Position numbers and translations under genes: made by a program. Positions 2,638 through 45,333 of a DNA stretch of 64,000 bases are shown piece after piece. Source of the DNA: an uncultured Alphaproteobacteria bacterium (GTDB lineage Bacteria; Pseudomonadota; Alphaproteobacteria; HIMB59; GCA-002718135); NCBI GenBank assembly GCA_902616075.1, contig CACMRK010000004.1, positions 22,346-86,345 on the forward strand, written 5' to 3'. Every line of letters starts with the position of its first letter. Positions within the stretch are counted from its first letter, which is position 1. Below the pieces are notes generated by a model. It was not told the DNA's origin and searched no databases. It worked only from the letters and a program-made list of their open reading frames with translations.

Positions 2638-5600
2638 ATGAAAATTAATATTATAGACTATGCAATAAGCCATTCCCGAGTTTTCATGGGAATACTTATT
2701 TTTATTATTTTTTCAGGTGCATCTACTTACATCACAATGCCCAAAGAATCATCTCCTGATGTAAGCATACCAATAGTTTATATTTCACTAAGTCAAAATG
2801 GTATTTCTGCACAAGACTCTGAAAGGCTTTTAGTTAAACCAATTGAAGACGAAGTTAAAACTGTTGAAGGAGTAAGAGAAGTAAGATCAACAGCTTATTC
2901 AGGTGGAGGTAATGTTTTATTAGAATTTGATGCTGGATTTGATTCTGATCAAGCTATGGTTGATATTAGGGATAAAGTTGATAGAGCTAAGGGTGATTTA
3001 CCTAGTGAAGCAGATGAACCAACAGTTAACGAAGTTAACATAAGTACATTTCCTATCTTATCCATTTCTTTAAGTGGAGATGTGCCTAATAGAACTCTTC
3101 AGGATTTAGCTGACATTTTGCAAGATGATATTGAAACAATTCCTAGTGTTTTAGAAGCTAAAATAGGCGGTAAAAGAAATGAACAGGTTGACATATTAAT
3201 TAATCCAACTGCAGTTGATAGCTATGGTATCAATCTTGAGAGTCTTATTAATATTGTTAGAGAAAATAATAAAATGGTATCTGCTGGTGGTCAAGACACT
3301 GGTGACGGAAGTTTTGATATTAAAGTTCCAGGTTTATACGAAACTATTGAAGATGTATTAAATACTCCTGTTAAAACTAACGGAGACTCAGTTATTACTT
3401 TCAGAGATATAGCTGAAGTTAAAAGAACATTCGAAGATAGGCAATCTTATGCAAATGTAAATGGATCTAATTCAATAACTATTGATGTTTCCAAAAGAAT
3501 TGGTGAAAATATTATAAATACTATTGAAGAAGTAAAAAGAATAACTGCAATTACTGCTAAAAGTTTTCCTGAAAATGTTGAAATCTCTTTTGGAAATGAT
3601 CAATCAAAAGGAATTAAAACTATGTTAAATAGTCTGCAAAATAACGTCATAGCAGCTATAATCCTTGTTTTAATTATTATTTTAGGAGCATTAGGTGTTA
3701 GATCTGGTTTATTAGTTGGTGTATCTATTCCAGGATCGTTTTTATCAGGTTTATTAGCTCTGTCTGTAATGGGCTTTACTATTAATATAGTAGTATTATT
3801 TGCTCTAATTTTATCTGTAGGACTATTAGTCGATGGAGCAATTGTTGTTGTTGAATATGCAGATAGAAAAATGAAAGAAGGTCTTGGTGTAAAAGATGCT
3901 TTCGCAAACGCATCAAAAAAAATGTCACTACCAATTATATCATCGACTGCAACTACCCTAGCGGCCTTTTTACCTTTAATATTCTGGCCTGGTATAGCTG
4001 GTGAATTTATGAAATATTTACCAATTACACTTATATGTGTTCTTATATCTTCTTTGTTTATGGCATTACTGTTTGTCCCAGTTTTAGGATCTATTTTAAA
4101 TACTGTTTCAAGAATACTTCTCCAATTTATTGTACCATTACTAATATCATTAATTTTTTACAATCTATTATCTTATGGATTTGGATTATTAAATCTTGAA
4201 AGTTATAGTTTATTTATAACAATTGGAAAATATTTACTGAGCTTCGCTTTATTTATATTTGTATTTATAAGAATTATACCAAGAGTTTATAAAATTTCAG
4301 AAAATGTAAATTCTACAGATAAATTAGTTTCTAAAAATGCAAAAATTTTATCTTCAGAATCAAATGAACCTGTTTTAAACGTAACTGGTTTTGTTGGATT
4401 TTATGCAAAAGTATTAAACTTCTTATTATTTCATCCTTTAAAGGTGATGATTAGTGCTTTAGTAATATTAGTTGCTGTAAACTTCACCTATACTAAAGTT
4501 GGAGAAGGTGTAGAATTTTTCCCAGATGTTGAACCAGATCTTGCAAAAATTGTAGTCTTTGCAAGAGGTAATCTCTCAGTTGAAGAGAAAAAAGATTATG
4601 TATCAAGAGTTGAGAATATTATTTTAAAGCTTCAATCGGAAAGACAAGAATTTAAAAATATTTATTCTTTAAGTGGAAATGTAAGTGAACAATCAGAGGC
4701 ATCAGAAGACTTTATTGGATCAATAAGTTTGGAATATACAGATTGGGATAAAAGAAGAAAATCAAAAGTAATTCTTGCAGAAATTTTGGAAGCCACAAAA
4801 AGCATCAATGGTATTAAAGTAGAGTCAAGAGAACAACAAGGTGGTCCTGGTGAAGGTAAACCAATTAACATTAAATTAACCAGTGATAATAAACAACTTT
4901 TAATTGCTGAAGGAATTAAGCTTAAAAAATTTATGGATAGTTATCCAAAGTTAATGAATGTAGAAGATAATTTACCAGCACCTGGGATAGAATGGGAAAT
5001 TAATGTAGATAGAAAACAAGCTTCTAAGTTTGGAGCTAACATTACATCAATTGGTAATGTAATTAAACTTGCAACAAACGGTCTTAAACTTGGTGAATAT
5101 AGACCTGATGATAGTAATGAAAGTATACCACTTTATCTTCGCTATCCAAACGAAGGAAGAACATTGGATAGAATTGATAACTTAAGAGTAACTACTTCAA
5201 ATGGTTTAGTTCCAATATCCAATTTTGTAGAAATTGTTCCAAATAGCAGAACAGGAAATATAATTAGAGTAGATTCAAAAAATGCTATAAATATTCAGGC
5301 AGATGTAGAGCCTGGAACTTATCCTGACGGAAAAGTAAAAGAACTTGAGTACGTATTAGGAATTTCAGATACTGCTCCGTCTTGGAGAGGAAGAACAATA
5401 GATTTACCTCGTTATGAATTGGACAACAAAGTAAGGGCTGAACTTATTGGCGAAAATGAAGACCAAAAAGAAGCTCAAGAATTTTTAACAGGAGCTTTTG
5501 GTGTAGCTTTATTTTTAATGCTAATGATACTTCTATTGCAGTTTAATAGCTTTTATAGTGCATTCTTAATTCTTTTTGCAGTAGTAATGTCCACAGCCGG

Positions 5601-14625: not shown

Positions 14626-14710
14626 TGGTAGCCTCGGCCGGACTTGAACCGGCACTCCCAAAAGGGCAAGGATTTTAAGTCCTTTGTGTCTACCATTCCA
14701 CCACGAGGCC
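14626..14710 (-). tRNA. tRNA-Leu (anticodon UAA), CCA encoded
   Basis: Hand-folded minus strand: GGCCTCG-TG-GTGGAATGGTAGACAC-A-AAGGA-CT[TAA]AA-TCCTT, then a long variable arm GCCCTTTTGGGAGT, then GCCGG-TTCAAGT-CCGGC-CGAGGCT-A-CCA. 85 nt with a G1:U72 pair. Confidence 0.9.
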
Positions 14711-37601: not shown

Positions 37602-38069
37602 TTATTTTTTTAGCTTATTGATTAGTGTAAGGTTACCTGGATCAAAATTATTTTTATTTTCTTGAATAAATTTATCTATATCTTTTTGCTTTTCTAATTC
37701 TAATTCAGAAACTTTTCTAATATTTAAATCAACATACAAAGAACAAACCTCTGTTGTTGCTGCTCTATAACCTTCAAGCTTATGTGTCATTTCTAATTTA
37801 TAAATTAATCTTTTTTTATCCCTATCAAGAAATAACAAATTAATATCTACTTCATCACCCTCTTTCACTTCTTTGTCATAAGTTGTGTGTGACTCTACGG
37901 CAAAAGTAGTTTTCTTCTCTGTTTTTGCAGAAGTTTCACCCATATTAAATTTTTGTAAAAGAACTTCCCATCCAGCATCAAAAAGATGAATATAAAATGC
38001 CAAATTCATATGACCATTGTAATCGGTCCATTCTTTTTTCACTTTTCCTGAATTTAAATATATCTTCAT
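37602..38069 (-). CDS. hotdog-fold acyl-CoA thioesterase (betainyl-CoA thioesterase-like)
   Basis: 155 aa of the 4HBT-type hotdog fold (EWTDYNGHMNLAFY). Divergent from the BKACE + carnitine dehydrogenase genes, as in known carnitine clusters. Confidence 0.6.
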   Translation of the reverse strand: MKIYLNSGKVKKEWTDYNGHMNLAFYIHLFDAGWEVLLQKFNMGETSAKTEKKTTFAVESHTTYDKEVKEGDEVDINLLFLDRDKKRLIYKLEMTHKLEGYRAATTEVCSLYVDLNIRKVSELELEKQKDIDKFIQENKNNFDPGNLTLINKLKK

Positions 38070-38111
38070 TGTTTTTCTTTATTAATTCAAAAAATATAGT
38101 AGTTTAAATTA

Positions 38112-39002
38112 ATGAATAATGAAGTAATAATTTCGTGTGCTGTAACTGGATCAGGAGATACAGCAGGCAAACATCCTGAATTACCTATAACACCAAAACA
38201 AATTGCTGATGCTTCAATTGAAGCTGCCAAAGCGGGTGCAGCAATAGCTCATTTACATGTAAGGGAACCTGATGGCAAACCTTCTAGAAATTTAAGTTAT
38301 TATAAAGAAGTGGCAGATAGAATTCGCTCTTCTGATACTGATGTAGTTTTAAATTTTACTACAGGTATGGGTGGTGATTTTGAAGTTGGAACAGGTAAAG
38401 ATCCTTTAAATCCCGTGGGAGCAAATACAGATATGATCGATGCATTAAGCAGATTAGAACATGTTGAAGAGTTATTGCCAGAAATTTGTACTTTAGACTG
38501 CGGATCACTAAATTTTGGTGACTCAAACATGACATTTATTCATACACCGATACAACTAAGAACTGCAGCAAAAAAAATGCAGGAGCTTGGAGTGAAACCA
38601 GAAATGGAAGCTTTTGAAATGGGTCATTTATGGTTTGCTAACCAACTTTATAAAGAAGGTTTAATTGATGGTCCTCCTTTTTATCAAATATGCCTTGGCA
38701 TACCTTGGGGATCACCTGCAACAACGAGCGCAATGAAAGCAATGGCTGAAATGGTACCTACTGAAGGTATTTGGTCTGGATTTGGAATAGGAAGATCACA
38801 AATGCCCATGGCTGCACAAGCAGTTATTTTAGGAGGAAATGTTCGTGTGGGACTTGAAGATAATCTTTATTTAAAGAAAGGAGTTTTTGCATCAAATGCA
38901 CAGTTAGTTGAAAAAGCAAGATGCATTGTTGAAGATATGGGGGCTTCTATTTTATCCCCTCAACAGACTAGAGAGAAATTAAAACTAAAAAAACATTTTT
39001 AA
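38112..39002 (+). CDS. BKACE (DUF849) family beta-keto acid cleavage enzyme, dehydrocarnitine-cleaving type by context
   Basis: BKACE pattern [10 protein letters not shown]...[27 protein letters not shown]...NFTTGMGG. It lies 1 nt upstream of a carnitine-dehydrogenase-like gene. Confidence 0.7.
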
Positions 39003-39003
39003 T

Positions 39004-39924
39004 TTGAAAAATATTGCTGTCATTGGAACTGGTGTAATTGGTACCGGCTGGATACTTAGATTTCTCGCTAATGGTATAAAAGTCAAAGCATTTGATAAAA
39101 ATTCTCAGCAATTACATTTTCTAAAAGAAGAAATAACAAGAACAAACTTAATTATAAAGAAATTATATAATACAAAAATCAATTTCAAAAATTTGGAAAT
39201 CGTAGACAGTATTGAAGAAGCAGTAAAAAATGCAGAGTTAATTCAGGAAAATGTCCCCGAACGATTAACTTTAAAAAAAGATGTTATAAAAAATATAAGT
39301 AAATATTCACCCTCAAATTCAATAATTGCTTCAAGTTCATCTGGTTTACTTCCATCAGATTTACAATCAAAATGTATTAATCCAAAAAGATTAATCATAG
39401 CTCATCCATTTAACCCTGTATATATTCTCCCTTTGGTTGAAATTGTAAAAGGTAAAAAAACTACAAATTTATATCTAAATAAAGCAAAAAAATTTTATCA
39501 AAAAATTAAAATGAAGACATTATCGGTAGAAAAAGAATTACCAGGCTTTTTATCTGATAGATTGCAAGAAGCTTTGTGGAGAGAGGGGTTACATATTGTA
39601 AATGATGGATATGCTTCAACAAAAGATTTAGATGAAGCAATCACTTATGGGCCTGGTATGAGGTGGGCTTTAATGGGAACTTTTCTTACTTTTCATCTTG
39701 CTGGAGGAGAAATGGGTATGAAACACATGTTAGATCAATTTGGACCAGCATTAAAACTTCCATGGACTAAACTGAAATCTCCAAAATTGACAAAAAAGCT
39801 TAAAGAAAAAATCATCAAAGGAACAAAAAAACAATCAAATAATCATTCTATAAAAGATTTAAGTAACATAAGAGATAATTTCTTAATAGATTTGCTAGAA
39901 TTAAAGAAAAAATATAAATTATAA
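39004..39924 (+). CDS. L-carnitine dehydrogenase-like 3-hydroxyacyl-CoA dehydrogenase family protein
   Basis: Rossmann motif IAVIGTGVIGTGW and 3HCDH N- and C-terminal domains. TTG start per the track. BKACE and thioesterase gene context. Confidence 0.65.
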   Translation: MKNIAVIGTGVIGTGWILRFLANGIKVKAFDKNSQQLHFLKEEITRTNLIIKKLYNTKINFKNLEIVDSIEEAVKNAELIQENVPERLTLKKDVIKNISKYSPSNSIIASSSSGLLPSDLQSKCINPKRLIIAHPFNPVYILPLVEIVKGKKTTNLYLNKAKKFYQKIKMKTLSVEKELPGFLSDRLQEALWREGLHIVNDGYASTKDLDEAITYGPGMRWALMGTFLTFHLAGGEMGMKHMLDQFGPALKLPWTKLKSPKLTKKLKEKIIKGTKKQSNNHSIKDLSNIRDNFLIDLLELKKKYKL

Positions 39925-39926
39925 TT

Positions 39927-40934
39927 ATGACAATAATCTCAAAATATGTAGCTTTAAAAAATTATATACCAACTGGCTTACCCAAAGAAGAGGATTTTGA
40001 AATTAAATCTAAAACTTTAGAATTAGATGAAACAAATAATATTCATGTTCTTAATTCATGGATATCTGTTGATCCGTATATGAGAGCAAGAATGACAGAA
40101 CGTAAAAATTATAAACCACCCTTTTTACTAGGCGAGGAAATGGAAGGTTATGCAATTGGGTCAGTACAAAAATCAAAAGATTCACAATTTAAAGAAGGAG
40201 ATGTTGTTTTCAGTAATTTTGGAATGAGAGATAACTTCATTTGCAAAGGCGGTGATTTAAAAAAAATAAAAAATTCCAATCTTCCATTGCAAACTTATCT
40301 AGGACCTTTAGGAATGACAGGTCAAACAGCATATATTGGTCTTTTTAATCATGGAAATATACAAAAGGGACAAAGTATTCTTGTATCTTCAGCAGGTGGA
40401 AGTGTTGGATCAACAGTTTGTCAAATTGCAAAAAATTTAGGATGTAAAGTTTATGCTAGTACAGGATCAGATGAAAAAGTTGATTGGTTAAAAAATGAAT
40501 TAAATGTTGATGTGGCATTTAATTATAAAAAAATTGATAACCTTGTTCTTCACTTAAAAGAAATTTGTCCTGAAGGATTTGACTTATATTTTGATAATGT
40601 TGGGGGTGATTTTTTAGAGTCTGCGATTTTTCGAATGAAAAATTTTGGAAGAATTATTATTTGTGGAAGAATATCTCAGATGAATTCAACTTCTACTCCT
40701 GCTGGACTAAAAAATATGGCTCACGTATTAGTAAAAAGATTAACAATAAAAGGTTTTTTAATTTTTGATCATGAAAATGATAATGAGCCTTTTGAAACTG
40801 ATATGCGAAATTGGATTTCAGAAGGAAAAATAAAATTTAAAGAAACAATTTATGAAAATATAGAAAATGCTCCTAAAGCATTTATAGATTTACTTAATGG
40901 TAAAAATTTAGGCAAAATGTTAGTTAAAATTTAA
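39927..40934 (+). CDS. NADP-dependent oxidoreductase, MDR superfamily (alkenal/enone reductase, PTGR1/YncB/CurA-like)
   Basis: SVDPYMRARM and AGGSVGSTVCQIAK motifs; 335 aa. Begins 2 nt after the dehydrogenase gene. Confidence 0.7.
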   Translation: MTIISKYVALKNYIPTGLPKEEDFEIKSKTLELDETNNIHVLNSWISVDPYMRARMTERKNYKPPFLLGEEMEGYAIGSVQKSKDSQFKEGDVVFSNFGMRDNFICKGGDLKKIKNSNLPLQTYLGPLGMTGQTAYIGLFNHGNIQKGQSILVSSAGGSVGSTVCQIAKNLGCKVYASTGSDEKVDWLKNELNVDVAFNYKKIDNLVLHLKEICPEGFDLYFDNVGGDFLESAIFRMKNFGRIIICGRISQMNSTSTPAGLKNMAHVLVKRLTIKGFLIFDHENDNEPFETDMRNWISEGKIKFKETIYENIENAPKAFIDLLNGKNLGKMLVKI

Positions 40935-42374
40935 CTAAATTGTAACGTAGGGAGACGTCCCTCGATATTTTATATCTAATTTAAGTTCTTTATCAATTGG
41001 AGGAAAAGCTCTTTGCTGACATTCCACTCTAGGGCATATCCTACACGAAACTCCAATTGGCATTTGTAATTTTTTATTATTAAGATCAATTCCTTCAGAA
41101 TAAATTAGATCTTTAGCGTATTTCATATCACAACCTAAACCAATCGAAACAAAACTTTTAGGCATTCCATGTTTTTCAATTCCTTTCTCAAAAGCTCTTG
41201 CTATACAAAAATATACTCGTCCATCAGGCATTTTAGATATTTGAGGATGAATTTTTCCAGGATTTAAAAAAGCAGTATACACATTCCATCTAGGACAAGA
41301 ACCTCCATGTCTTGGTATATGAATACCAGATAAAGAAAATCGCTTTGACACATTTCCAGCAATATCTGTTTTTAAAAAATGAAATGGCACTCCTTCGTTT
41401 CCAGGTCTTTGAAGATTTGTTAATCTATGTGTAACTTGTTCAAAACTACAAGCATAATGATGCATCAAAATTTCTACATCATATTTATGTAATTTAGCAC
41501 TCTTTAAAAAATCGTTATAAGGCATCATAAAAGCAGCAGCATAATAATTTAGTAAAGATAGTTTAAGCAAAGGTTCTACTTCTTCTGATTCGACGTTATT
41601 ATCTTTAATAACTTTATTGATAACATCATTAGCCTCTAAATAAGCAACTTGTGATGCTAAATGAAAGTTTCTTGATGTGTAAGTTAACATTTCAGAAAGA
41701 TAAAAAATCTTGGATTTTTCATCAAATCTTTTAACTATTTTTTCATCTTCGTTTATGGTCACTATTTTAACTTCAATTCCATGTTTTTCTTTAAGATAAA
41801 GTGATAATTTAGATCCAGAACCAATGTTAGGTCCAGTTTCAAGACCTATTTCTTTTCTTAGATTTTCAGAACTTACTTCTAAATCATGAAAATAATTTTT
41901 ATTTTCTTGAAGAATATCTGAAACGATTTCTACAGGTAATCTTGTTGGTTTTTCAATTTGATTTGCATTGACATCCATCGTTTCAAGTCGATTTTGCATA
42001 TCTTCTTTAAAACTTTTAAAAGAATCATTTATTGTCAGTAATGCCTTAGCTATGTTAGGATTTGAACCAATAAAGTCACTTGTGTCATAATTGGTTATCT
42101 TTAAATCATCAAAAATCTCATTGCTTAAAACATCCATTACGTCTGAAAGTAGTCGTTTACTAGATTCTGTTGAGAAGTCTTTAATTGATAAATCTAATTT
42201 ATCAGCTGCTTTAATTAGTAAGGAAAGTGGTATTTTTCTTTTTCCACTTTCAATTAAATTTAAATAACTAGGAGATATACCAATAGTTTTTGATAATTCA
42301 GCTTGTGAAAAACCTTTGCTTATCCTTTGTTTTTTTAACCTTGGGCCAAAATTTATGTCAGATTCAATATTCAT
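40935..42374 (-). CDS. ScfR/RamB/PrpR-family transcriptional regulator (XRE HTH + DUF955-like + DUF2083 Cys-rich domain)
   Basis: N-terminal XRE HTH (FSQAELSKTIGISPSYLNLIESGKR). Central degenerate ImmA/IrrE-like region (NFHLASQVAYLE). C-terminal GGSCPRWNV ... CRICPRVECQQRAFPP cysteine pattern typical of the family. Confidence 0.8.
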   Translation of the reverse strand: MNIESDINFGPRLKKQRISKGFSQAELSKTIGISPSYLNLIESGKRKIPLSLLIKAADKLDLSIKDFSTESSKRLLSDVMDVLSNEIFDDLKITNYDTSDFIGSNPNIAKALLTINDSFKSFKEDMQNRLETMDVNANQIEKPTRLPVEIVSDILQENKNYFHDLEVSSENLRKEIGLETGPNIGSGSKLSLYLKEKHGIEVKIVTINEDEKIVKRFDEKSKIFYLSEMLTYTSRNFHLASQVAYLEANDVINKVIKDNNVESEEVEPLLKLSLLNYYAAAFMMPYNDFLKSAKLHKYDVEILMHHYACSFEQVTHRLTNLQRPGNEGVPFHFLKTDIAGNVSKRFSLSGIHIPRHGGSCPRWNVYTAFLNPGKIHPQISKMPDGRVYFCIARAFEKGIEKHGMPKSFVSIGLGCDMKYAKDLIYSEGIDLNNKKLQMPIGVSCRICPRVECQQRAFPPIDKELKLDIKYRGTSPYVTI

Positions 42375-42390
42375 TTACAAAATTTACAAA
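42374..42390. promoter_or_regulatory. tandem octamer element A: TTTACAAA-a-TTTACAAA (candidate ScfR-type operator)
   Basis: Read directly from the sequence. On the regulator's strand it is TTTGTAAA-t-TTTGTAAA, ending in the A of the regulator ATG. Confidence 0.45.
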
Positions 42391-42464
42391 AATAATAAAT
42401 TCGAAGTAATTTTCTTTACATTAAAACTAAGAAAAACTCTAGTTTTTTTTCATTTTTTTATGTA

Positions 42465-42481
42465 TTTGTAAAATCTGTAAA
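42465..42481. promoter_or_regulatory. tandem octamer element B: TTTGTAAA-a-TCTGTAAA (inverted copy of element A)
   Basis: Read directly from the sequence. It is the reverse complement of element A at 16/17 positions and ends 1 nt before the ATG of the 59-codon ORF. Confidence 0.45.
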
Positions 42482-42482
42482 T

Positions 42483-42662
42483 ATGAACAGTAAATTAACA
42501 GAAAATATTAACAACCAAAAAGACAGCCTAGAGCAGAGTTCTATTGAGAAGAAGGTTCTTGAAGGATCTATAGACTCAAATTATGACCTTAATCTTGCTG
42601 ATGGTATCGAAGCATACTACAGCGAAAGATACGGTTGGACTCTTAGAAGAAAAACGATCTAA
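42483..42662 (+). CDS. unannotated 59-aa hypothetical protein (below the ORF-track size cut-off)
   Basis: My translation is MNSKLTENINNQKDSLEQSSIEKKVLEGSIDSNYDLNLADGIEAYYSERYGWTLRRKTI*. It is the only open frame in the largest gap of the window, has a G+C-enriched 3' half, and is followed by a hairpin + T-run. Confidence 0.4.
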   Translation: MNSKLTENINNQKDSLEQSSIEKKVLEGSIDSNYDLNLADGIEAYYSERYGWTLRRKTI

Positions 42663-42678
42663 TTAAATTAGATTTTTT
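42657..42678. terminator. weak AT-rich bidirectional hairpin terminator between the mini-ORF and the GMC oxidoreductase gene
   Basis: ATCTAAT (42657-42663) pairs with ATTAGAT (42667-42673). A T-run follows at 42673-42678 on the plus strand, and CGTTTT follows on the minus strand. The stem has only one G:C pair, so it is weak. Confidence 0.35.
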
Positions 42679-42682
42679 CTCT

Positions 42683-44284
42683 CTAACTAACGGTACTATT
42701 TATTTGGTCGTAAGCTTTTTCAGCAATCATAATAGTTGTTGCATTTAAATTAGCACTAACAATATCTGGCATTACAGAAGCATCAATAACTCTTAAATTT
42801 TGAATTCCATGAACCCTTAGGTCTTGGTCTACAACTGAAGTTTTGTCCTCACCCATTTTATTAGTGCATGACGGATGATACGCAGATTCAGATGTATTTT
42901 TAATAACTTCATTTAATTCATTTTGATTAGATACATTTTTCCCAGGCCTAATTTCTTTACCGAGATACTCTTTAAGTGGTTTTTGAGACAAAATTTTTCT
43001 AGCAATTCTTACACCTTCTCTCATTTGTTTTAAATCATCCTCATGCTTAAGGTAATTAAATTGAATTTTAGGATCATCTTTATAGTTATTTGTTTTAATT
43101 TTAATAAAACCTCTGCTTTTTGGTCTATTTGGACATACATGAAATTGAAAAGCTTCAAACTTAGGATTTTCTAAACCATGATTAATAACTAAGTACGGAA
43201 AAAAATGAAATTGTAAGTTTGGATGACTATATGATTTGTCAGATTTAACAAACCCTCCTAATTCTAAATGTGAGTTTGCTAATCTACCTTTTTTAAATAA
43301 AAACCATTTTGATCCCTCAATAGCTTGATAAAGATAATTCGTTGCTAGAGTATGTAATGTTTCATTTTTTTTAGATTTATACTGAATGTACATCTCTAAA
43401 TGATCTTGTAAATTTTCTCCCACCCCAACTAAATTATTAATAACTTCTATTCCCAAGCTTTTAAGATACGTTTCATTACCTATTCCGGATAGTTGAAGAA
43501 TTTTAGGTGAATTAATTGAACCAGCACAAAGTATAACTTCTTTATTGGCTAAATAATTATTGGTTATATTTTTTTTAATCGTTTCAACACCAATTGCAGT
43601 TTTATTTTTAAAAAGAATTTTTTTAACATCAATATTATTTATTATTCTTAGATTTTTTCTATTTTGGATTGGCTCTAAATATGCCTTAGCAACACTTTGC
43701 CTAACACCATTGTTTATTGTTACATCAAAAGTTCCAAAACCTTCCTTATCAATACTGTTAGAGTCATTAAATATTTTATATCCAGCTTCTTGTGCAGCTT
43801 CTAAAACTTTTTTAAATAGAGGATATTTTTTATCTATGTTTGATTTATTTACTTTTAATGGCCCCTCTTTACCTCTTACATTACTATCATGAGACCAAGT
43901 TTCTAATTTTTTAAAAAAAGGTAAAACTTTTTCATATGACCAATTAGTTAAACCACTTGAAGACCATCTATCAAAATCCTCTTTATGACCTCTAGCGAAA
44001 ACCATTCCGTTATGCGAAGAGCATCCCCCGATCATTTTACCTCTTGGACAATATAAAGATCTATTATTTAGAAACGGCTCAGGCTCAGTATAATATTTCC
44101 AATTATATTTTGGATCATGCATTGCATATAGAAGTGCACTTGGCATATCAACTTTCCAGGTTTTACTGGATGGGCCAGCTTCTAATAAAATTACAGAATT
44201 CTTTGATTGTGAAGACAATCTGTTAGCTAAAACACAACCTGCTGACCCTGCTCCAACAATGATGTAGTCAGCGTTTTTATCCAC
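42683..44284 (-). CDS. GMC family oxidoreductase (choline dehydrogenase-like), copy 1
   Basis: FAD fold DYIIVGAGSAGCVLANRLS and a GMC C-terminal substrate domain with AYHPSCT and VIDASVMP. Confidence 0.85.
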   Translation of the reverse strand: MDKNADYIIVGAGSAGCVLANRLSSQSKNSVILLEAGPSSKTWKVDMPSALLYAMHDPKYNWKYYTEPEPFLNNRSLYCPRGKMIGGCSSHNGMVFARGHKEDFDRWSSSGLTNWSYEKVLPFFKKLETWSHDSNVRGKEGPLKVNKSNIDKKYPLFKKVLEAAQEAGYKIFNDSNSIDKEGFGTFDVTINNGVRQSVAKAYLEPIQNRKNLRIINNIDVKKILFKNKTAIGVETIKKNITNNYLANKEVILCAGSINSPKILQLSGIGNETYLKSLGIEVINNLVGVGENLQDHLEMYIQYKSKKNETLHTLATNYLYQAIEGSKWFLFKKGRLANSHLELGGFVKSDKSYSHPNLQFHFFPYLVINHGLENPKFEAFQFHVCPNRPKSRGFIKIKTNNYKDDPKIQFNYLKHEDDLKQMREGVRIARKILSQKPLKEYLGKEIRPGKNVSNQNELNEVIKNTSESAYHPSCTNKMGEDKTSVVDQDLRVHGIQNLRVIDASVMPDIVSANLNATTIMIAEKAYDQINSTVS

Positions 44285-45066: not shown

Positions 45067-45333
45067 TTATTGAATATTATCTATCTCTTTTTTAGAAATA
45101 TATCCAATAGTTTTACCTTTATTGTCAGTAACTACTATTGTTAAGTTGTCTTCAAGAATTTTATTTTTAAAATTTTTTAGTTTTATATTTTGGTTTACTT
45201 TGTAAATAGAACCTAATGTTAAATTATCTTTATTAAAACTGTTCTCAATTATCATTATATTTTTTGCTTCTAGATTATCTATTCTATTTTCTTTGCTAGA
45301 AAAAATATTAAGTAAAAATTTAAATATATTCAT
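45067..45333 (-). CDS. 88-aa protein with a single CBS-like motif
   Basis: The C-terminal NLTIVVTDNKGKTIGYISKKEIDNI resembles the beta2-beta3-alpha2 end of a CBS domain. It is packed with 0 nt to the SDR gene and 18 nt to the ABC ATPase gene. Confidence 0.45.
   Translation of the reverse strand: MNIFKFLLNIFSSKENRIDNLEAKNIMIIENSFNKDNLTLGSIYKVNQNIKLKNFKNKILEDNLTIVVTDNKGKTIGYISKKEIDNIQ

Follow-up and report, generated by a model that had tools for sequence, protein, structure and literature searches.

Tandem TGTAA units between a RamB-like regulator gene and a divergent 59-codon gene in SAR11 bacteria: a predicted operator of the RamB type

The window analysed here is a stretch of 64,000 nucleotides (64 kb) from an uncultured alphaproteobacterium (assembly GCA_902616075.1, contig CACMRK010000004.1). 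It carries a gene for an ScfR-family regulator and, divergent from it, a gene of 59 codons, referred to below as the mini-gene. The short spacer between the two start codons contains tandem repeats built on the unit TGTAA(A), which are the subject of this report. The genes and elements of the locus are the following, in window coordinates:

40935 to 42374, minus strand: regulator open reading frame, 479 amino acids (aa), ScfR family, RamB-like
42375 to 42388, minus strand: proximal box of the RamB type, TGTAAATTTTGTAA, made of two TGTAA units at 9 bp and reaching to the regulator ATG
42407 to 42420, minus strand: distal box TGTAAAGAAAATTA, within the conserved block 42403-42421, 18 bp from the proximal box
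42439 to 42450, plus strand: block CTAGTTTTTTTT, invariant within the close clade of the window (conservation profile and multi-clade alignment)
42465 to 42481, plus strand: mini-gene-proximal 17-mer TTTGTAAAATCTGTAAA, with the core pair TGTAAAATCTGTAA at 42467-42480, mirrored with respect to the proximal box
42483 to 42662, plus strand: mini-gene, 59 codons, a real protein-coding gene of a SAR11-restricted family

Read directly, positions 42374-42390 are TTTACAAAATTTACAAA, where T42374 stands opposite the A of the regulator start codon. The second 17-mer, TTTGTAAAATCTGTAAA, is followed by T42482 and then by the mini-gene ATG at 42483. On their own coding strands the two read TTTGTAAA-T-TTTGTAAA (regulator) and TTTGTAAA-A-TCTGTAAA (mini-gene); both have the form 8-N1-8, and 74 nt separate them. 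A first-pass annotation, made from the sequence alone, had located both 17-mers and the 74-nt spacer correctly and had recognized an ScfR-type regulator. It had also noted that neither gene has a Shine-Dalgarno sequence, and no GGAG-like stretch was found before the regulator or the mini-gene ATG in the window. The 16/17 agreement it gave for the two 17-mers becomes 15/17 on recounting (15/16 inside the octamers), the differences being the spacer base and one octamer base. The proximal box, TGTAATTTTGTAA on the plus strand, is the core of the 17-mer at 42374-42390. The box at 42407-42420 is additional to the two 17-mers of the first pass; its first unit is the canonical TGTAAA, and its second half together with C42406 reads as inverted GTAA/TTAC. 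The two boxes form a 14-18-14 layout (box 42375-42388, spacer 42389-42406, box 42407-42420). The block at 42439-42450 may belong to the promoter of the mini-gene, in which TAGTTT would be a -10-like hexamer.

The exact pattern TTTGTAAANTYTGTAAA exceeds chance in the window: it is matched twice in 64 kb against 0.01 expected, and two matches were reached in no shuffle. For the octamer taken singly there is no enrichment (19 found, 14.6 expected in 64 kb), so that the unusual thing is the pairing and the placement rather than the word. When two mismatches are allowed, the 17-mer pattern falls to chance level in the window (2 against 1.73 expected). The last two counts agree with a chance low-complexity repeat in DNA of 30% G+C. 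Against such a repeat stand the exact pair, the invariance of the units across clades with a diverged spacer, and their presence in GC-rich genomes (see below). The conservation data refute this explanation, and its probability is practically nil.

The regulator has the domain order of the ScfR family, an XRE-type helix-turn-helix (HTH), an IrrE/M78-like domain and then the ScfRs C-terminal domain (Pfam: HTH_3, 2e-13; Peptidase_M78-like, 8.5e-14; ScfRs C-terminal, 5.6e-62). Its best NCBIfam family is RamB (NF038139), with 412.1 bits and E = 2.6e-123. Residues 67-476 align to PrpR of Mycobacterium tuberculosis (6cz6) with the cluster cysteines kept. Cys360 in GGSCPRW and the C-X2-C-X4-C motif CRICPRVEC are the counterparts of GGSCPLW and CKICNRTSC in PrpR, for which the identities of the iron-sulfur (Fe-S) ligands were reported (PMC6765138). 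The recognition helix is SPSYLNLIE (HTH residues 34-42; window 42249-42275, minus strand). A literature search for a RamB or ScfR protein of SAR11 returned no relevant paper, the matches to 'RamB' being the author name Rambo.

The alignment of the mini-gene has period-3 conservation, and the C-terminal motif of its product, A[YF]YS[ES]RYGWTL[RK][RK] (AYYSERYGWTLRRK), is invariant down to 34% identity. None of its 178 homologs is named, and no match was found in Pfam or NCBIfam. An exhaustive HMMER search of 1.84 billion representatives yielded about 20 short clusters (50% identity), SAR11-like, together with low-complexity matches to large proteins. In the AlphaFold2 model only a C-terminal beta-hairpin, formed by the motif, is confident, and the predicted template modelling score is 0.30. 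A further example of the gene lies at 3676-3873 of locus L070. Of the 151 loci examined, 140 have the mini-gene divergent from the regulator; in several of the other 11 the contig ends within about 100 nt upstream of the regulator. The gene after the mini-gene varies:

isocitrate lyase, same strand: 13 loci
aldo-keto reductase, same strand: 26 loci
GMC oxidoreductase, convergent, as in the window: 86 loci
another gene: 10 loci
contig too short: 5 loci

Isocitrate lyase is the classical RamB target, and its position after the mini-gene fits a RamB ancestry.

Orthologous loci came first from a scan of species-representative genomes. It gave 66 loci, all of SAR11 single-cell or metagenome-assembled genomes, in which the regulator is 89-100% identical; the regulator upstream region is present in 65 of them. 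A metagenome scan with a regulator alignment gave 80 more, down to 67% regulator identity, and look-ups of individual homologs added 6. Across 140 orthologous loci with regulators 67-100% identical the TGTAA units are almost unchanged. The sequence TTGTAAATTTTGTAAATG is invariant in 65/65 loci of the first scan, and the adjacent spacer positions are variable. In the 80 further loci the units persist as regulator-oriented arrays of 2-6 plus the mirrored pair, and the proximal box is still present in the clades of 67-75% identity. The units occur upstream of the regulator in all orthologs examined, while the remaining spacer sequence diverges and the interior of the spacer is replaced between clades. 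GTAA at -45 and TTAC at -35 are found in 100% of the clades of at least 85% identity. The 32-bp offset between -45 and -13 reappears as -48/-16 and -47/-15 in other clades and is kept in every SAR11 clade. The clade of the window has a reduced set, consisting of the two terminal pairs and the invariant middle block ATGTAAAGAAAATTACTT. The general plan of the spacer, in regulator orientation, is the following:

mini-gene start (CAT)
0-51 nt, containing a GGAG Shine-Dalgarno in some clades
ATTTACAnnATTTAC
central CAAT-N5-7-ATTG element, in most clades
GGTAAAttaTGTAAA
TGTAAAaaaTGTAATtt-TGTAAAnnTTGTAAA
0-12 nt
regulator ATG

The central element of most SAR11 clades is a near-palindrome, (G/T)CAAT-N5-7-ATTG(A/C) (locus L070 at about 3921-3936, and loci L148 and L150). 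The most distant clades have TGCAAATATTTATTGCA here, a sequence similar to TTGCAA, and the clade of the window has CTAGTTTTTTTT instead. It could be the site of a second factor or a promoter element. In most of the 67-75% clades an A before several units gives repeated ATGTAA, a start followed immediately by a stop (locus L067, 3967-3997; locus L070, 3968-3998). These are probably incidental to the TGTAA core.

A TTAC-N4-5-TTAC pair lies near the mini-gene in 118 of 120 unique spacers, and in 117 of these 118 the outer-to-outer span from the mini-gene-proximal to the regulator-proximal pair is 105-107 bp. The last unit is 0-12 nt from the regulator ATG, mostly 0-3, and 0 in the window. The mirrored pair is 0-51 nt from the mini-gene ATG, and where the mini-gene has a Shine-Dalgarno the pair sits upstream of it. 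The flush placement that the first-pass annotation described is thus not conserved on the mini-gene side. It is the geometry of the DNA that is conserved rather than contact with the ATGs.

These distances bear on an RNA-level role, which the first-pass annotation had allowed for. UGUAAA-N3-UGUAAA in the 5' untranslated region would then serve in translational control or in ribosome loading independent of a Shine-Dalgarno, possibly bound by a protein. The units are sense-oriented for both genes and abut both start codons of the window; the missing Shine-Dalgarno sequences and the closeness of the units to the regulator ATG (0-7 nt in almost every locus) also agree with it. On the mini-gene side the role is disfavoured, because the distance ranges over 0-51 nt and a GGAG Shine-Dalgarno intervenes in some clades, while the DNA span stays at 106±1 bp. 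The distal box and the further units are too far upstream for a short leader. Rfam lists nothing at the locus, either in an E-value scan of 42200-42800 or in a gathering-threshold scan of the whole window, and RNA folding of both spacer strands is like that of shuffles (z = -1.05 and -1.35). Other gene starts in about 1 Mb lack the paired motif, which is therefore not a general SAR11 ribosome-loading signal, and the homologous elements of Paracoccus act as DNA sites (see below). An RNA-level element is considered exceedingly improbable.

The paired motif is confined to the spacer. It was counted 349 times within the spacer of about 110 bp and 4 times in 994 kb of flanks, where about 9 are expected by chance. 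Compared with shuffles, the 120 unique spacers are enriched about 5.7-fold in GTAA and about 4.9-fold in TTAC. In the 64-kb window no other TGTAA-N3-5-TGTAA was found, including upstream of the BKACE/carnitine-type operon described below.

The closest known counterpart is the class-2 RamB box of Paracoccus denitrificans. In strain Pd1222 the site of RamB (Pden_1365), in ramB orientation, is AGTCAGTATTGTCA, 18 bp, TGTAAGGTTTGTCA, C and ATG (PMC10370305); the boxes were derived here by comparing the wild-type and mutant binding oligonucleotides listed in that paper. The ATG after TGTAAGGTTTGTCA is the ramB start; the 'no-start' cloning primer of that paper begins at the codons after it. Mutation of the boxes abolishes binding of RamB in vitro and activation of the divergent ms-icl (malate synthase-isocitrate lyase) operon in vivo (PMC10370305). 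ScfR proteins are tetramers for which paired boxes are usual (PMC6765138, PMC10370305), and binding of coenzyme A (CoA) esters moves the P. denitrificans RamB from tetramer to dimer (PMC10370305).

The window shows this layout in full. In both organisms the regulator belongs to the ScfR family and diverges from its target, each box consists of two units 9 bp apart, (A/T)GT(A/C)A in P. denitrificans, and two boxes are separated by an 18-bp spacer. TGTAAGGTTTGTCA is identical to the SAR11 box TGTAAATTTTGTAA at 11 of 14 positions. The 32-bp offset between units recurs in P. denitrificans (units at 17, 26, 49 and 58) and in Rhodovulum, and the gap between the proximal box and the regulator ATG is 0 nt in the window, as against 1 nt for P. 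denitrificans and 2 nt for Rhodovulum. The site is about 80-90 bp upstream of the divergent gene in the window and in P. denitrificans alike. There are also differences. The class-2 target is aceB and/or aceA, and in the window it is the gene for 59 aa in place of ms-icl; the SAR11 clades with isocitrate lyase after the mini-gene (13 loci) agree in part with the class-2 type. Most SAR11 clades have 4-6 units, all A/T-rich, compared with 4 in P. denitrificans, and the degenerate second unit of the distal box in the window has no equivalent there. SAR11 adds the mirrored far-end pair at a fixed 106-bp span, which is not a feature of P. denitrificans. The SAR11 regulator is only about 34% identical to the aceB-linked RamB-type regulators of Paracoccaceae, the family of P. 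denitrificans.

More distant homologs were sought by tblastn of plasmids and chromids, and ScfR homologs turned up in 248 records. The closest of them, at 39% identity, is that of Azospirillum lipoferum and is divergent from aceA. Its upstream region has 5 regulator-oriented GTAAA in 62 bp (expected over all 7.4 kb of the locus: 2.06); the units are at least 22 nt upstream of the ATG, with a GGAG-like stretch between. In the whole of this GC-rich locus 6 of the 8 GTAAA fall in the spacer between aceA and the regulator. A single GTAAA (L153, 2855-2859) is inverted; it is situated on the aceA side, some 65 bp upstream from the forward array, and may be a rudiment of the SAR11 mirrored arrangement. 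The aceB-icl-linked regulator of Rhodovulum sulfidophilum has TTGTAAGGTTTGTCA 2 nt before its ATG, the sole match to TGTMA-N4-TGTMA in 6.4 kb, and the upstream region of the aceB-linked regulator of Paracoccus alcaliphilus is similar, with TGTMA units.

A different box precedes other members of the family. TTGCRAA is found before regulators adjacent to pccB (A. thermophilum, S. meliloti pSymB and Bartonella), acnA (Novosphingobium) and metE (A. argentinense), at 1-5 copies per 170 nt against 0 for three aceA/aceB-linked regulators. With these pccB-, acnA- and metE-adjacent regulators no TGTMA unit in regulator orientation was found, except for two TGTAA words in the AT-rich spacer of Bartonella. 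The recognition helices divide in the same way. With TGTMA units the helix is S-x-S-Y-[LI]-[NT]-L-I-E (SYLNLIE in SAR11 and A. lipoferum, SYITLIE in Rhodovulum and P. alcaliphilus), and with TTGCRAA boxes it is S-x-S-Y-L-N-Q-[LI]-E. The ScfR family thus seems to have two operator dialects, TGTMA and TTGCRAA, which track a single Q/L position of the recognition helix in a small sample of about nine regulator types (SAR11 and the non-SAR11 loci L153 and L155-L161). The position is presumably that of the base-contacting glutamine of helix 3 of the 434 repressor; this is a lead, and the sample is small.

The first-pass annotation had derived the repeats by one base change from the consensus TTTGCAAA. 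This reference lies on the wrong branch of the family, because SYLNLIE goes with the aceA/aceB-linked TGTAA/TGTCA regulators and TTGCRAA goes with SYLNQ[LI]E. The SAR11 units, TTTGTAAA or TCTGTAAA, are non-palindromic and lack the palindromic core of TTTGCAAA/TTGCRAA, and SPSYLNLIE has L where the TTGCRAA regulators have Q. The N1 spacing had been presented as a departure from the family, but the footprinted site of M. tuberculosis PrpR is already 8-N1-8, reading TTTGCAAA-N1-TTTGCgAA (PMC3420887). Like the SAR11 element, the site of the mycobacterial PrpR/RamB proteins is a 17-bp site of two 8-mers with a 9-bp period, in a short divergent spacer adjoining the regulator gene. PrpR is a tetrameric ScfR with the C-X2-C-X4-C Fe-S motif (PMC6765138), which is kept in the SAR11 regulator. 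The mycobacterial 8-mer differs in being palindromic with a central GC, while TTTGTAAA is directional, and the targets are the methylcitrate and icl1 genes, unlike those in SAR11. The Q/L contrast holds among alphaproteobacterial regulators, the TTGCRAA-type having Q and the SAR11 regulator L. PccR-type operators, for which A. thermophilum, S. meliloti pSymB and Bartonella were the cases compared, belong to the same protein family and have paired near-identical boxes between the regulator and a divergent operon of acyl-CoA metabolism. They differ from the SAR11 locus in the TTGCRAA box, the SYLNQ[LI]E HTH and the target, propionyl-CoA carboxylase. The N4 spacing of PccR and the ScfR class definitions are said, by secondary attribution, to go back to Carter and Alber in 2015.

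Another DNA-binding protein might occupy the units, either a global regulator or a nucleoid protein preferring phased A/T-rich repeats. The spacer does have other conserved blocks (CTAGTTTTTTTT in the clade of the window, CAAT-N5-7-ATTG elsewhere), and the link of the sites to the SAR11 regulator is a predicted one. A protein of this kind is hard to reconcile with a motif that is confined to the spacer (349 against 4, and none elsewhere in the window). The motif also accompanies aceA/aceB-linked ScfR genes across SAR11, Rhodospirillales and Rhodobacterales and across GC contents, and co-varies with the HTH recognition helix. RamB has been shown to bind it in Paracoccus. The probability of a different protein is put very low.

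As the main alternative, the units could chiefly be -10 elements of core promoters, the penultimate unit of each pair giving the hexamer (TAAATT for the regulator and TAAAAT for the mini-gene) and transcription beginning on the ATG or a few nt from it. The end of TAAATT lies 6 nt before the A of the regulator start codon and that of TAAAAT (42469-42474) 8 nt before the ATG of the mini-gene; a promoter consensus scan lists TTTTCA-16-TAAAAT ending at 42474. Leaderless or near-leaderless transcripts would account for the missing Shine-Dalgarno sequences, and almost all loci have their last unit 0-7 nt from the regulator ATG. The promoter scan itself is at chance, however, with 3 sites against 2.5 expected. 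A -10 element needs no 4-6 tandem copies with an invariant TGT prefix, and the penultimate unit of locus L067 is TAAAAG, without the key final T. In GC-rich Azospirillum the units are at least 22 nt from the ATG with the GGAG-like stretch between, and in the SAR11 clades of the isocitrate lyase type a GGAG Shine-Dalgarno stands between the pair and the mini-gene ATG. The homologous box of Paracoccus, moreover, is a proven protein-binding site. A chiefly promoter nature of the units is improbable, and a promoter role is more likely an addition to an operator role than a substitute for it.

The tandem TGTAA(A) units are best read as binding sites, that is, operator boxes, of the adjacent RamB-like ScfR regulator, with a probability of roughly 0.8. 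The first-pass proposal of operator sites for this regulator is thus very probably right, as judged from the conservation, the confinement to the spacer and the match to the validated RamB site. The feature is real and under functional constraint. It is the form taken in SAR11 by an operator type that was described and validated in 2023, not a new kind of element. The mirrored second pair at a fixed span and the conserved small-protein target look specific to SAR11. The regulator is RamB-like by operator, HTH and context, a designation short of proven class-2 membership.

Several points weigh against the operator reading. The regulator scores 412 bits, below the equivalog cut-off of 700 for RamB (NCBIfam NF038139). 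In a crude neighbour-joining tree of 11 sequences the SAR11 branch stands alone, not with the class-2 RamB proteins of Rhodobacterales, its nearest neighbour being the aceA-linked A. lipoferum protein at 39% identity. The second unit of the distal box is degenerate in the window (AATTA), isocitrate lyase is absent from the 64-kb window, and the window has no further paired site that would define a regulon. The counts over the 140 loci are not independent, because the loci are related, and with -10-like hexamers in the units part of the conservation could be promoter constraint. Binding to the box is known from experiment for P. denitrificans and predicted for SAR11.

If the operator reading is correct, the regulator would be an acyl-CoA/CoA-sensing repressor or activator of the XRE type carrying an Fe-S cluster, and the control region would be a two-box site of the Paracoccus type (42407-42420, 18 bp, 42375-42388) plus the mirrored pair at 42467-42480. 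At the proximal box the bound regulator would cover the core promoter of its own gene or the transcript's 5' end, giving autoregulation. Autorepression has been reported for RamB in mycobacteria (PMC3420887). For the SAR11 regulator the chance of autorepression is put at about even. The two-box site lies about 60-110 bp upstream of the mini-gene start, comparable to the 82 bp for activation of ms-icl by the RamB of P. denitrificans. The mirrored pair, over the promoter or 5' end of the mini-gene, would provide a second and probably repressive contact.

A tetramer may bridge both ends of the spacer, 91 bp centre to centre (42382 to 42473), in a loop that binding of CoA esters would release, the tetramer passing to the dimer as in the P. 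denitrificans RamB. A ligand-released loop would explain the fixed span. Looping is a tentative suggestion, less likely than not. In the LacI O1-O3 loop a tetramer holds operators about 92 bp apart centre to centre, one of them over the promoter or transcript start. The centre distance is similar here, the protein family is unrelated, and the SAR11 loop is proposed from the fixed spacing and the tetramers of homologs. Dual control of the divergent genes and looping, both raised in the first-pass annotation, are compatible with the 106±1 bp span and with tetrameric ScfR proteins.

It is doubtful, but conceivable, that the regulator, the mirrored pairs at the 106-bp span and the 59-aa protein form a self-contained module in which the loop shuts both promoters and the mini-protein is the effector. 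The mini-protein might then, for example, modulate the glyoxylate shunt or RamB itself. Such a module would explain why the pair is retained in clades that lost the adjacent isocitrate lyase.

To our knowledge, SAR11 bacteria have very few transcription factors, and almost none of these has an assigned binding site. The present analysis provides a well-supported predicted operator for one of them, with TGTAA units, a 9-bp period and a 14-18-14 layout. The operator would tie the SAR11 regulator to the RamB branch, by which other Alphaproteobacteria control the glyoxylate shunt. With it the regulon becomes searchable in complete genomes, and a constant small-protein partner is identified. The relation between the Q/L helix position and the operator dialect is a testable rule of specificity. 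Existing knowledge of how such regulators work is unchanged.

The region 37602-40934 holds a conserved cluster, convergent with the regulator, that looks like a carnitine-type catabolic one. It comprises a BKACE gene (38112-39002), a gene for an enzyme of the 3-hydroxyacyl-CoA dehydrogenase type (39004-39924) and one for an ADH_N_2 oxidoreductase (39927-40934). A divergent thioesterase gene (37602-38069) matches the C-terminal part of carnitine 3-dehydrogenase. An open reading frame of 88 aa (45067-45333, minus strand), with no match in Pfam or NCBIfam, lies between the genes for an SDR (short-chain dehydrogenase/reductase) and an ABC (ATP-binding cassette) ATPase. The sole Rfam or ARAGORN match in the 64-kb window is a tRNA-Leu(TAA) at 14626-14710 on the minus strand.

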